DNA from: a virus
Taxonomy: Duplodnaviria > Heunggongvirae > Uroviricota > Caudoviricetes
Reading direction: 5' to 3' (one strand)
Length of the DNA: 6,610 nt
Virus record (IMG/VR): IMGVR_UViG_2706794697_000006
Shown here piece by piece: positions 1 through 6,610 of the stretch. Each line of letters opens with the position of its first letter. Within the stretch, counting starts at the first letter, position 1. The notes under the pieces were generated by a model, which saw only the letters and a program-made list of their open reading frames with translations, was not told the DNA's origin and ran no database searches. Both the position numbers and the translations under genes were made by a program.

Positions 1-140
1 CATTGAGATTTTCTACAATCGTCAGCGTCGTCACTCTCGTCTGGGGAATATCTCCCCGGCAGCCTTCAGGGAAAAATATCATCAGATGGCTGCTTAAAAA
101 AAGAACAAATGGTAGTGTCCGCTATTGCCAGTACACCTCA
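1..140 (+). mobile_element. IS3-family insertion sequence, right-end fragment (copy A); body lies left of the window
   Basis: Bases 1-140 are the exact reverse complement of 6471-6610. They contain the 3' end of a transposase ORF and end in ...GCAATAGCGGACACTACC...TCA-type terminus (TG...CA ends typical of IS3 family). The two flanks diverge immediately after base 140 / before 6471. Confidence 0.8.
2..97 (+). CDS. IS3-family transposase (OrfB-type) C-terminal fragment; 5' end outside window
   Basis: Frame starting at base 2 translates to IEIFYNRQRRHSRLGNISPAAFREKYHQMAA then TAA at 95-97. This resembles the conserved C-terminal tail of IS3-family DDE transposases (from memory, not searched). 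Confidence 0.75.
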   Translation: MEIFYNRQRRHSRLGNISPAAFREKYHQMAA

Positions 141-150
141 GGATAGCGGT

Positions 151-194
151 CATGTGATGCCGGTTTCCCGGTAACTCAGCACCGGTATCTGAGT
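151..194. repeat. Stem-loop pair module X1 (hairpin 160-171 plus hairpin 174-194), related to module X2
   Basis: CCGG/CCGG 4-bp stem with TTTC loop (160-171), then ACTCAG/CTGAGT 6-bp stem with a 9-nt loop (174-194), preceded by ATGTGATGC. A second copy of the same architecture lies at 372-418. Confidence 0.5.
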
Positions 195-320
195 CAACGT
201 TTTCTCTACTGGGTCATTTCCGATACGCCCTGCCTGCTGACAGGCTTTCATCACATCTGAAAATATAGCACCCTGACTGATACTGTAGTACCTAAGGTTC
301 CAGAAACTGTGATGTATCCG

Positions 321-347
321 GCACAGAAAAGCCCCTCCGGAGAGGGC
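321..347 (-). terminator. Candidate intrinsic terminator (minus strand)
   Basis: Minus strand reads GCCCUCUCCGGAGGGGC (imperfect GC-rich hairpin, 331-347) followed by UUUUCUGUG (plus-strand A-run 327-330). The stem has one bulge. Confidence 0.35.
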
Positions 348-371
348 TGGAGAGTGGCGCTATGTGCCATT

Positions 372-418
372 GCATGATGCCGGGTGCCTCCCGGTGAATT
401 CAGTACCAGCACCTGAAT
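372..418. repeat. Stem-loop pair module X2, related to X1
   Basis: CCGGG/CCCGG 5-bp stem (380-394), then ATTCAG/CTGAAT 6-bp stem with a 9-nt loop (398-418), preceded by GCATGATGC. Relative to X1 the second stem carries a compensatory C-G to T-A change. Confidence 0.5.
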
Positions 419-544
419 CCGCGATTATCCCATATACCTACTCGCTGATTGCCCCTCCGCACAGGGGGATTCACCATGCCAGTTTCTTTTAACAAACTCC
501 CCGCAAAACAGACAACTGTCAACCGTCTGAATTGTGAGACATTT

Positions 545-570
545 AAAAAAAAGGCCCGCAAAAGCGAGCC
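545..570 (-). terminator. Rho-independent terminator immediately downstream of tRNA-Arg
   Basis: Minus strand: GGCUCGC-UUUU-GCGGGCC hairpin (plus 553-570; 7-bp stem with one G-U pair) followed by eight U (plus-strand A-run 545-552). Confidence 0.7.
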
Positions 571-584
571 AGGGAAAATAAGTG

Positions 585-661
585 TGGCGCGTTGTACTGG
601 ATTCGAACCAGTGACCGATTGCTTAGAAGGCAATTGCTCTGTCCGGCTGAGCTAACAACGC
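585..661 (-). tRNA. tRNA-Arg, anticodon UCU (reads AGA); phage-borne rare-codon tRNA
   Basis: Minus strand folds as a 77-nt cloverleaf: acceptor GCGTTGT/ACAACGC, D-stem GCTC/GAGC, anticodon stem ATTGC/GCAAT with loop CTTCTAA (anticodon TCT), variable loop CGGTC, T-arm ACTGG-TTCGAAT-CCAGT, discriminator G, encoded CCA. Confidence 0.9.
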
Positions 662-674
662 ATGATGCAGATAA

Positions 675-715
675 TGGACCGCCATCGGGGACTTGAACCC
701 CGCGCAGCCAGCTTC
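675..715 (-). tRNA. Partial tRNA, 3' portion only; 5' half including the anticodon lies in the N-run
   Basis: Minus strand shows T-arm CGGGG-TTCAAGT-CCCCG, then 7-nt acceptor strand ATGGCGG, discriminator T and CCA ending at 675. Identity cannot be determined. The implied 5' acceptor strand (CCGCCAT) is unusual, so this is tentative. Confidence 0.45.
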
Positions 716-2246: not shown

Positions 2247-2365
2247 GTCTTTTCCTTTTCCGGTTAACGTGACACACCAATAACTCTTGTCGAAAAAGCC
2301 AGCAAGCTGAAAGACAGGTATTCACCGCCACCAGCGCGTTTACTGTACTGACGCGATTTCAGTCA

Positions 2366-2390
2366 TAAAAAACCCGCTCGGCGGCGGGTT
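2366..2390 (-). terminator. tR'-like intrinsic terminator downstream of the late promoter
   Basis: Minus strand: CCCGC-CGCCGA-GCGGG hairpin (plus 2373-2388) followed by UUUUUU (plus-strand A-run 2367-2372). It lies about 50 nt downstream of the predicted PR' start. Confidence 0.7.
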
Positions 2391-2437
2391 GTAGAAACTC
2401 TTCTAACGTCAGGCATAAAACGCCCATCGTTATAACG

Positions 2438-2465
2438 AATTTACCACAGATTCCGGAAAAATCAA
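2438..2465 (-). promoter_or_regulatory. PR'-like late promoter (sigma-70) just downstream of Q; expected site of Q engagement
   Basis: Minus strand TTGATT (-35, plus 2460-2465), 16-nt spacer, TAAATT (-10, plus 2438-2443). TAAATT is the -10 hexamer I recall for lambda PR'. The position between the Q stop and a terminator matches lambdoid late-control architecture. Confidence 0.5.
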
Positions 2466-2470
2466 CCTTG

Positions 2471-5206: not shown

Positions 5207-5236
5207 AAATAAAAACAAAAACCCGCCGAAGCGGGT
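5207..5236 (-). terminator. Rho-independent terminator at the 3' end of the hok mRNA
   Basis: Minus strand: ACCCGC-UUCG-GCGGGU hairpin (plus 5221-5236) followed by UUUUUGUUUUUAUUUU (plus-strand A-rich run 5207-5220). Confidence 0.8.
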
Positions 5237-5305
5237 TAAGTGTGGGTGCATTGAGGATGCCTGCCCCATCAGAGGTGGCGAGGGATTTCTCCCCCGCCTG
5301 GTCTC

Positions 5306-5461
5306 TTACTCCTCAGGTTCGTAAGCTGTGAAGACAGCGACCTCCGTCTGGCCGGTTCGAATTCGTACCTCGCAGAGGTCTTTCCTCGTTACCAGTGCCG
5401 TCACTATGACGGTTAAACAGATGACGATCAGGGCGATTAACATCGCCTTTTGCTGCTTCAT
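5306..5461 (-). CDS. hok: Hok-family type I toxin (51 aa membrane peptide)
   Basis: Translation MKQQKAMLIALIVICLTVIVTALVTRKDLCEVRIRTGQTEVAVFTAYEPEE, which matches HokD/RelF of E. coli as recalled. ATG at 5461 is preceded by GGAGAAGCAGGCT. Confidence 0.9.
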   Translation of the reverse strand: MKQQKAMLIALIVICLTVIVTALVTRKDLCEVRIRTGQTEVAVFTAYEPEE

Positions 5462-5518
5462 AGCCTGCTTCTCCTTGCCTTTCGGCACGTAAGAGGCTAA
5501 CCTAGATTTGCCGTTCAT
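5306..5518 (-). CDS. mok: mok-like reading frame (70 codons), in-frame N-terminal extension of hok
   Basis: ATG at 5518 in the hok frame adds MNGKSRLASYVPKGKEKQA upstream of Hok. The 70-codon length and arrangement match my recollection of mok loci. Confidence 0.55.
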   Translation of the reverse strand: MNGKSRLASYVPKGKEKQAMKQQKAMLIALIVICLTVIVTALVTRKDLCEVRIRTGQTEVAVFTAYEPEE

Positions 5519-5575
5519 AGATTGAGCCTCAGATTAATGTTAAGCGTCTTGCCGGACGCGTAATGTTAACTGGGG
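5510..5575 (+). ncRNA. sok: Candidate sok-like antisense RNA (position inferred, boundaries approximate)
   Basis: Plus strand opposite the mok start. Possible promoter TTGCCT (5475-5480), 17-nt spacer, TAACCT (5498-5503). Possible terminator hairpin GCGTC-TTGCCG-GACGC at 5544-5559 followed by a weak U-rich stretch. No clean terminator, so this is weak. Confidence 0.25.
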
Positions 5576-5612
5576 CTTTTCTCTATCTGCCTTTTGGTGT
5601 TCATGCCTGAGA

Positions 5613-5665
5613 CAGATAGCCTCAAGCACCCGCTGCAATTCTACTTAACTCTCCTTTTCCCGCAA
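5613..5665 (-). promoter_or_regulatory. hok promoter and mRNA 5' end carrying the fold-back partner of the 3' fbi element
   Basis: Minus strand TTGCGG (-35, plus 5660-5665), 16-nt spacer, TAGAAT (-10, plus 5638-5643). The predicted 5' end GCAGCGGGUGCUUGAGGCUAUCUG (plus 5613-5636) is complementary to the mRNA 3' region (plus 5241-5258) with one bulge, and resembles the GCUUGAGGC 5' motif of hok mRNA. Confidence 0.55.
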
Positions 5666-6271: not shown

Positions 6272-6470
6272 TTAACCCGCAGTGCTTTCAACTGATGAGG
6301 GGAACAAAATCTTTTCATCAAACCCTGCATTCATATCATGAACAGCAACACACCAATCCATCGACGAACGATTATCAAGAGCCTCCATGATTTCATCCAT
6401 GCGGCGTAGGTCATACAGGTAAATGCTTTTATCGCCAATGGTGTAAAAGCCAATTTTTTTCGGTGATGGA
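6272..6470 (-). pseudogene. 3' fragment of an unidentified prophage gene truncated by the IS insertion (66 native codons)
   Basis: Open frame ending in TAA at 6272-6274 runs without a start codon up to the IS boundary at 6471. Native translation ...HPSPKKIGFYTIGDKSIYLYDLRRMDEIMEALDNRSSMDWCVAVHDMNAGFDEKILFPSSVESTAG. The frame continues into the IS to an ATG at 6502. Confidence 0.5.
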
Positions 6471-6610
6471 TGAGGTGTACTGGCAATAGCGGACACTACC
6501 ATTTGTTCTTTTTTTAAGCAGCCATCTGATGATATTTTTCCCTGAAGGCTGCCGGGGAGATATTCCCCAGACGAGAGTGACGACGCTGACGATTGTAGAA
6601 AATCTCAATG
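6471..6610 (-). mobile_element. IS3-family insertion sequence, right-end fragment (copy B, inverted); body lies right of the window
   Basis: Exact reverse complement of 1-140. The terminus faces into the window. Confidence 0.8.
6514..6609 (-). CDS. IS3-family transposase C-terminal fragment (copy B); 5' end outside window
   Basis: Mirror image of the 2-97 fragment, with the same translation ...EIFYNRQRRHSRLGNISPAAFREKYHQMAA. Confidence 0.75.
   Translation of the reverse strand: MEIFYNRQRRHSRLGNISPAAFREKYHQMAA

Follow-up and report, generated by a model that had tools for sequence, protein, structure and literature searches.

At the moron site, eight Sakai prophages carry convergent pairs of Hfq-bound small RNAs (sRNAs), as described by Tree et al.; EcOnc27, encoded 3' of stx2B, is one of these sRNAs (PMC4104026; PMC7873438), and it is also known as sRNA103 and overlaps a prediction of the STnc100 family (PMC12711010). 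EDL933 transcribes its 11 STnc100 copies; ribosome coverage is low for most of them, and a Northern blot confirmed one (PMC5331693). RpoD binds at the STnc100 copies of Salmonella LT2 (PMC10794520). The sRNAs PasD1 and PasD2, located between the Q antiterminator gene and an esterase gene, are Hfq-dependent on Northern blots and have targets from the sequencing of ligated interacting RNAs (RIL-seq) (PMC8550237); according to a 2026 preprint, PasD and STnc100 are structural homologues that share a fold, and STnc100 matches, tRNAs and transposases occur around PasD/STnc100 loci (bioRxiv 10.64898/2026.05.13.724894). Here we analyze a 6,610-nt stretch of viral DNA (IMG/VR record IMGVR_UViG_2706794697_000006, hereafter the window) in which a tRNA gene is followed by DNA free of credible open reading frames (ORFs) and then by the end of an insertion sequence (IS). 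We consider it highly probable that this ORF-free stretch is a known moron-site sRNA block, made up of STnc100-family genes in a lambdoid prophage and cut by a routine IS600 insertion.

Results

The minus strand of the window, the one from which a lambdoid prophage transcribes its late genes, carries all the features described here, with the IS end itself read on the plus strand. As the initial annotation had proposed, tRNA-Arg(UCU) (argO-type; 585-661, minus; ARAGORN, and 70.1 bits with the Rfam tRNA model) is followed by a terminator, about 400 nt without a credible gene and an IS end at position 140, a layout that we could confirm in every part on the minus strand, with 445 nt between tRNA and IS. 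The intrinsic terminator lies directly 3' of the tRNA (minus strand; hairpin GGCTCGCTTTTGCGGGCC at 570-553, T8 at 552-545; terminator scan) and is kept in relatives; over positions 1-2500 of the window the number of terminator-like sites was 7, as compared to 2.5 +/- 1.7 in shuffled sequences. Between 141 and 584, ORFs are short (34-77 aa) and begin with non-ATG codons, the two longest overlapping the tRNA. The suggestion that the region encodes something other than protein was right: it holds sRNA genes of the STnc100 family, a class already documented.

In a permissive Rfam scan of the window, a unit at 319-508 (minus; unit 1) matched the STnc100 model RF02076 from end to end (cmscan, all 206 model positions, 1-206; E 1.3e-27). 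Its 123.6 bits are 2.6 times the gathering score of 47 bits. The cmscan structure line and a fold of the 5' domain recover the consensus architecture, namely P1, a CCCCC/GGGGG hairpin, H4, a CCGGG/CCCGG hairpin and a 3' terminator. The location likewise agrees with that of the family: a lambdoid prophage, between Q (with its tRNAs or cargo) and the lysis genes, with a nanS-p esterase gene in between where one is present. The 5' structured domain of unit 1 comprises 108 nt (372-479, minus) and is closed by P1 (GCAUGGUG/CAUCAUGC) in its minimum-energy fold, while the 3' part (326-371, minus; terminator scan and Rfam structure line) consists of a single-stranded tail at 371-349 (AAUGGCACAUAGCGCCACUCUCC), which represents a candidate seed region, a terminator hairpin at 348-330 and a U-run at 329-326. 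Alignment with the RNA-seq-defined 5' end of PasD2 (GCATGGTGAATCC, NC_011601 741157) suggests G479 as the likely 5' end of the unit 1 RNA. Just upstream, homology points to a putative promoter at 486-515 (minus), composed of TTGTCT at 515-510, an 18-nt spacer and TGt-TAAAAG at 494-486; every STnc100-type unit is preceded by a conserved TTTGTTAAAA block, which lines up with the promoter region of PasD2 and may act as the extended -10 of the unit promoters.

Uninterrupted relatives place unit 1 within a larger array. We compared the prophages of E. coli strains BEC1-S17 (L001) and UTI89 (L002), which are 98-99% identical to window positions 141-715, together with the locus of Shigella sonnei 53G (L015; HE616528.1). 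In both E. coli prophages, Q is followed by a hypothetical gene, a methylase gene, tRNA-Ile/Arg/Arg, a 976-nt intergenic region, a SASA-family (nanS-p-type) esterase gene and the genes for holin, lysozyme and Rz. Three STnc100-type units stand in tandem in this intergenic region, on the late strand. These score 136, 30 and 161 bits with Rfam in L001; the first is complete in the window, the second is cut by the IS (141-258) and the third is absent from it. Across the uninterrupted relatives and S. sonnei the three scores run to 123-136, 30 and 152-161 bits, respectively, and the same strong-weak-strong array occurs again in phages vB_EcoS-733R4 and 640R1, which are only 79-84% identical to the window stretch. 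The 5' domain of every unit folds with an 8-bp P1 and internal hairpins that include H4 (8 bp) and H5, the latter abutting the 3' arm of P1. Indeed, the interval from Q to the lysis genes houses sRNA units in every related prophage or phage that we examined; it is the tRNAs, the cargo genes and the presence of an esterase gene that vary, with IraM, TciAB or TolA-like cargo around the conserved sRNA unit in other relatives and different tRNAs as well.

Several further observations concern the array and its neighbors. A CTCACAAT motif at 531-538 (minus) has three further copies in the L001 intergenic region and stands upstream of every STnc100-type unit as well as of the esterase gene's ribosome-binding site; its complement is UGUGAG, the reported seed of PasD, which may be a coincidence, or the motif may be part of a promoter. 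Right after unit 3 in L001, on the opposite strand (about 6655-6692, plus) and beyond the IS in S. sonnei, lies a terminator, GCCCGCGTCTCCCAGCGCGGGC followed by T7, that closely resembles the RIL-seq candidate sRNA 'E2348C_1409.E2348C_1408.IGR' of enteropathogenic E. coli (EPEC). It would be a convergent partner of the kind reported by Tree et al., and it is not recognized by the Rfam models for AsxR and AgvB (RF02703 and RF02702), which gave no match at E <= 1 either in the window or across 5 kb of the intact relative. In phages mEp460 and JLK-2012 (L008 2448-2638 and L010 2465-2637), homology extends no further than the 3' arm of P1, beyond which other sequence takes the place of the usual tail and terminator; STnc100-type sRNAs reassort their 5' domains and 3' tails between phages. 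Finally, the first hairpin of unit 3 (L011 14553-14764) has a C7 run in IS-bearing S. sonnei in place of C5, with a score of 152 bits as opposed to 161 in 53G.

Unit 2 is the diverged member of the array. Its STnc100-like 5' domain, again of 108 nt (151-258, minus; weak Rfam match and fold), consists of P1 (AUGUGAUG/CAUCACAU), H1, H4 and H5, and is followed by the first 10 nt of its 3' tail (ACCGCUAUCC; 141-150, minus), as identified by alignment to the uninterrupted relatives, with IS600 immediately 3'. The Rfam STnc100 score is 21.8 bits in the window, where the match (92-280, minus) runs into the IS, and 30.0-30.1 bits in intact copies. Relative to STnc100, P1 keeps all eight of its pairs through four double changes (G-C to A-U, C-G to U-A, A-U to G-C and G-C to A-U), H4 keeps eight of eight with two double changes, and H5 is a 4-bp hairpin; H1 of the two unit 2 alleles adds a further compensatory change, C-G to U-A. 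As the helix arms of unit 2 and PasD2 were not aligned correctly by MAFFT, these pairs were tabulated from helices anchored on flanking invariant bases. An intact unit 2 copy folds with z = -2.51. A putative extended -10 (TGCTATATT; 262-270, minus) does not vary between the alleles; this box and the transcribed part are nearly invariant between alleles that are 9% diverged, and the DNA just upstream has diverged heavily. The unit 2 terminator, AGGCCCATCCGCTCCGGTGGGCCTTTTT, comes next in uninterrupted L001 and L015 and is found beyond the IS in L011. Among complete E. coli genomes, unit 2 occurs in 673 of 5426, and it is found in only 5 phage records. A literal search of literature text with the unit 2 sequence gave no match, and the unit 1 sequence matched only a quantitative PCR primer for STnc100. 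Two other identities were considered and rejected. Unit 2 is not a PasD allele, as BLAST of PasD2 against the region finds only a shared 5' 40 nt, and the repeated CCGG hairpins are not tRNA remnants, as ARAGORN finds nothing there and the hairpins correspond to H4 and H5.

The IS at the border of the array is IS600, of the IS3 family, whose right end occupies 1-140 (plus) with the last transposase codons (stop near 97) and a terminal inverted repeat ending in ACACCTCA at 140. This segment is 100% identical to elements labelled 'IS3-like element IS600 family transposase' by the Prokaryotic Genome Annotation Pipeline (PGAP); besides this identity, the element has TG...CA termini (TGAGGT.../...ACCTCA) and a 3-bp TCC target duplication in L011. 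We retrieved ten complete chromosomes (L011-L020) by exact match to the Q protein of the window, in seven of which both window junctions are exact (L011-L014, L016, L017 and L020); the other three (L015, L018 and L019) have the right-hand junction and no IS at the left one. Positions 141-715 are 100% identical to eight of these loci, and over its 5.5-kb body the window disagrees with L011 at 2 positions, so that its source is S. sonnei or cannot be told apart from it. Base-by-base inspection of L011 shows a simple IS600 insertion of 1264 bp, after which the interrupted sequence resumes at the next base. The far side of the IS, which the initial annotation had singled out as the place to look for missing genes, has lost nothing in the complete chromosomes: beyond the element in L011 stand the unit 2 terminator, unit 3 (152 bits), and the SASA/nanS-p esterase, holin and DUF1327 genes. 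In S. sonnei 53G the insertion is absent and the three-unit array is intact. The IS600 event is a simple, strain-polymorphic insertion without deletion. The exact 41-nt junction between IS and intergenic region had no match in a contig collection with one genome per GTDB species, which probably holds no S. sonnei, and the 140/141 junction is not covered by any top-ranked complete E. coli genome, where matches begin at 139 or 140. The right-hand IS600 junction (6470/6471) lies within a 76-aa ORF (6272-6502, minus) that starts inside the IS; since all ten S. sonnei-type chromosomes, including 53G, share this junction, it is older than the insertion at 140/141.

The remainder of the window fits the same prophage. 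The readable part holds only one complete tRNA: a second, argN-type tRNA-Arg(UCG) is represented by its 3' part (675-715, minus), and its 5' part falls under a run of masked bases (Ns) at 716-925. Given that 141-715 is 100% identical to S. sonnei chromosomes with the order tRNA(CAU), tRNA-Arg(UCG), tRNA-Arg(UCU), we place tRNA(CAU) and the rest of tRNA-Arg(UCG) under the mask, by comparison with L011-type chromosomes (tRNAs at 12494-12743 in L011); the earlier description of a tRNA cluster thus holds by inference from identical genomes, and it goes beyond what can be read in the window. In transcription order on the minus strand, the window begins with the Hok toxin gene and sok RNA (112 bits with Rfam), followed by genes for a DUF968 protein and RusA, the Q antiterminator (273 aa; PF03589), a 65-aa ORF and an N6/N4 DNA methylase, the last two between Q and the tRNAs. 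The hok/sok type I toxin-antitoxin module is complete (5306-5631, minus), with the Hok ORF at 5306-5518 (PF01848) and sok RNA at 5456-5631. A sub-threshold match to the Hfq-binding RNA isrK (5216-5297, minus; 25.8 bits against a gathering score of 50), with a terminator hairpin at its end, is seen again in UTI89 and the S. sonnei loci and may be another prophage sRNA. Directly 3' of the Q gene, a short stretch at 2364-2470 (minus), closed by a terminator at 2390-2371, is probably the PR'-tR' short transcript, the corresponding position of which yields StxS in Stx phages; the Rfam match there was a Trp_leader hit at chance level only. At the borders of the window, one 140-nt sequence occurs twice, inverted with respect to each other, at 1-140 and 6471-6610, each copy being the IS600 right end, and the longest contigs bearing the Q protein in 1580 index blocks were 5-10 kb. 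As the two ends are equal lengths of one repeat and many Q contigs measure 5-10 kb, the window is probably a whole short-read contig broken at IS600.

Discussion

Taken together, the window would be a late-regulatory segment of a cryptic lambdoid prophage of S. sonnei, bounded by two copies of IS600. In the model that we favor, the intrinsic terminator closes the tRNA transcription unit and the sRNA block comes next. Unit 1 would be a complete sRNA gene with a sigma-70-type promoter, a 5' domain of 108 nt that an 8-bp helix closes, a short tail and, at its end, a Rho-independent terminator, and unit 2 would be its diverged paralogue, built in the same way. Judging from the homologues EcOnc27/sRNA103 and PasD1/PasD2, each unit is most likely an independent gene for an Hfq-dependent, trans-acting sRNA made in the lysogen. 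Ordinary transcription would be halted by the terminators of the tRNA unit and the sRNAs; on induction, Q-modified polymerase from PR' would pass these terminators toward the esterase and lysis genes, read-through of this kind being established lambdoid biology. IS600 landed 10 nt downstream of the structured domain of unit 2, creating the 3-bp duplication and placing 1.26 kb between the array and its remainder, i.e. the unit 2 terminator, unit 3, and the nanS-p-type esterase and holin genes. Parted from its terminator by the IS, unit 2 is probably inactivated.

A number of results weigh against this model. The proposed unit promoters were not reported by a consensus promoter scan, and the unit 1 box fails the -10 criterion. 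Full-length unit 1 RNA folds no better than expected (z = -0.38), and the Rfam family fold is not the one of lowest energy, so the support for unit 1 lies in the covariance model and the comparison of copies and not in thermodynamics. Unit 2 stays below the gathering score of 47 even in its intact copies, and its covariation comes mostly from comparison of paralogues, with two alleles only. Expression as a discrete Hfq-bound RNA is known from the homologues only, and would extend to unit 1 by analogy. Furthermore, the unit 1 terminator stem has a 1-nt deletion (CCCC to CCC) that weakens it from -17.3 to -10.2 kcal/mol, and P1 carries a G-C to G-U change in S. sonnei. The deletion is specific to S. 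sonnei and was found at all S. sonnei loci examined (L011, L015 and L019); its presence in the finished 53G genome argues that it is no sequencing error. With a weakened terminator, a G-U pair in P1 and an IS-riddled prophage around it, the S. sonnei copy of unit 1 may be decaying.

The most durable alternative takes this decay to its end: the units would be what we propose, but the S. sonnei copies would be dead relics, with unit 1 terminating poorly, unit 2 truncated and neither functional in this host. Besides the lesions in the unit 1 stem and P1, the unit 1 U-tract is just 4 nt long, unit 2 has lost its terminator, and the S. sonnei prophage contains IS1, several IS600 copies and a lysis cassette truncated by a further IS600. 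Yet the unit 1 hairpin still forms, the Rfam score is still well clear of the family threshold (the same 2.6-fold), and the promoter region and 5' domain are intact; conservation argues neither way, because S. sonnei is too clonal. We regard functionless copies as unlikely, though as the alternative to be taken most seriously.

It is also conceivable, at a distinctly lower probability, that the units belong to the Q-dependent late transcript as structured cis elements, forming a terminator or processing cascade from which small RNAs would emerge as by-products of termination or RNase processing. Their position on the late strand, with PR' on one side and the lysis genes on the other, would fit, as would the terminator at the end of each unit and the weak consensus match of the proposed promoters; moreover, StxS arises by early termination of the late transcript (PMC7873438) and the neighboring sRNA PasA is reportedly cleaved from a longer transcript (preprint). 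However, the homologues accumulate in uninduced lysogens in an Hfq-dependent manner (PMC8550237; PMC5331693), RpoD is bound at the Salmonella copies (PMC10794520), and the 5' end of PasD2 falls exactly on the first base of P1, 7 nt past a TAAAAA box with a TTGACT -35. The strong terminator ahead of unit 1 further suggests that little transcription enters it from upstream in the lysogen, which counts against a cis role.

That the stretch encodes small proteins, such as those of the ORFs at 150-254 (minus) or 364-492 (plus; 42 aa), seems very improbable. The first of these matches phrog_23557 (E 2e-19), phage records annotate 'hypothetical proteins' over the units, and in relatives PGAP places a pseudogene coding sequence opposite unit 1, the 42-aa ORF being marked as a partial hypothetical protein. 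However, the 55-codon unit 2 ORF that starts with ATG in 733R4 has ATA at the equivalent codon of the window-type allele, leaving a 34-aa GTG ORF, and six of the eight substitutions between alleles inside this ORF are nonsynonymous yet preserve the RNA pairs (as read by eye). Neither Pfam nor any functional annotation covers these ORFs. PHROG families derive from predicted ORFs, with a phrog_27294 match (449-655, plus) that is simply antisense to tRNA-Arg(UCU), and ribosome coverage is low on most EDL933 STnc100 copies (PMC5331693). Both phrog_27294 and phrog_23557 are probably families of over-called ORFs.

Least credible of all is the deletion put forward by the initial annotation, in which the IS event removed cargo, toxin or lysis genes after the tRNAs and left the 400 bp as a remnant: the window does end in an IS 445 nt past the tRNA with no esterase or lysis gene in view, in a prophage heavily ridden with IS copies and with a lysis cassette truncated by another IS600 further on, but the idea is refuted by the complete chromosomes that share both junctions, in which a TCC-flanked 1264-bp IS600 interrupts a target that continues into the array and the esterase and holin genes, and by the 98-99% identity of the 400 bp to uninterrupted prophages. 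Intact UTI89, BEC1-S17 and 53G carry the same 400 bp within the 976-nt region with an esterase gene and then the lysis genes following, which comes close to the direct junction with lysis genes that had been named as the finding to speak against such a loss.

With the sRNA block as our preferred reading, the diverged unit 2 is the sole mildly new element of the locus, unannotated and below the Rfam threshold. We tentatively raise the possibility, to which we give somewhat less than even weight, that unit 2 (141-270; ~150 nt when intact) is an undescribed third branch of the STnc100/PasD superfamily, having its own extended -10, a re-coded closing helix and a short tail, ACCGCUAUCCUUCC, that would give it targets of its own; the IS600 insertion would then be a natural knockout that is polymorphic in S. 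sonnei. Otherwise the locus is a documented kind of prophage sRNA locus with a routine Shigella insertion and carries little weight as a discovery. It does suggest that DNA without ORFs downstream of phage tRNA clusters is to be compared with Rfam STnc100, PasD, AsxR and AgvB before being called anomalous, and that IS600 at contig ends should not be taken as a deletion. Furthermore, strains of S. sonnei that carry this IS600 copy and strains that lack it, such as 53G, offer a natural pair for any phenotype of the middle unit or of read-through into the esterase and lysis genes.

Set against known systems, the insertion resembles other Shigella IS600 polymorphisms in its 1264-bp IS3-family element, TG...CA ends, 3-bp duplication and variable presence among S. 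sonnei; nothing about it is unusual, and the sole notable point is that the target lies inside an sRNA gene. With STnc100 (RF02076) the locus shares the whole-model match, the helices, the terminator and the prophage context downstream of Q. It departs from that family in the 1-nt terminator-stem deletion and the G-U pair in P1 of the S. sonnei unit 1, and in unit 2, which even when intact reaches only 30 bits. PasD1 and PasD2, EcOnc13 homologues of EPEC E2348/69, have in common with the units the 5' end GCAUGGUGAAUCC, the fold closed by P1 and the position between Q and the esterase gene, but PasD2 scores 41 bits on the STnc100 model and has a UGUGAG seed tail and another terminator, neither of which is found in unit 1 or 2.

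The closest positional counterpart is EcOnc27/sRNA103 of the enterohaemorrhagic E. coli prophages Sp5/933W, located 3' of stx2B and, like the units described here, an STnc100-type unit between moron cargo and a nanS-p esterase gene. No convergent anti-sRNA of the AsxR or AgvB type was detected in the window, in contrast to the EcOnc27 site. The 5' domain of unit 1 is shorter than that of EcOnc27 (108 versus 129 nt) and its 3' tail is of another type, from which it follows that the two probably differ in their targets. As the initial annotation had correctly stated, the tRNAs of Stx2 phages lie just upstream of stx: in a Stx2a phage, the methylase gene is followed by ileZ-argN-argO, stx2A, stx2B, 864 nt of intergenic DNA and the esterase gene, with the STnc100 unit starting 74 nt after stx2B. 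Homology between the Stx2a phage and the window spans the tRNAs and the terminator and ends at window position 547. Where Stx2 phages carry stx2AB between the argO terminator and the sRNA unit, the window has no stx; it shows this slot without the toxin gene, and the sRNA block comes directly after the terminator.

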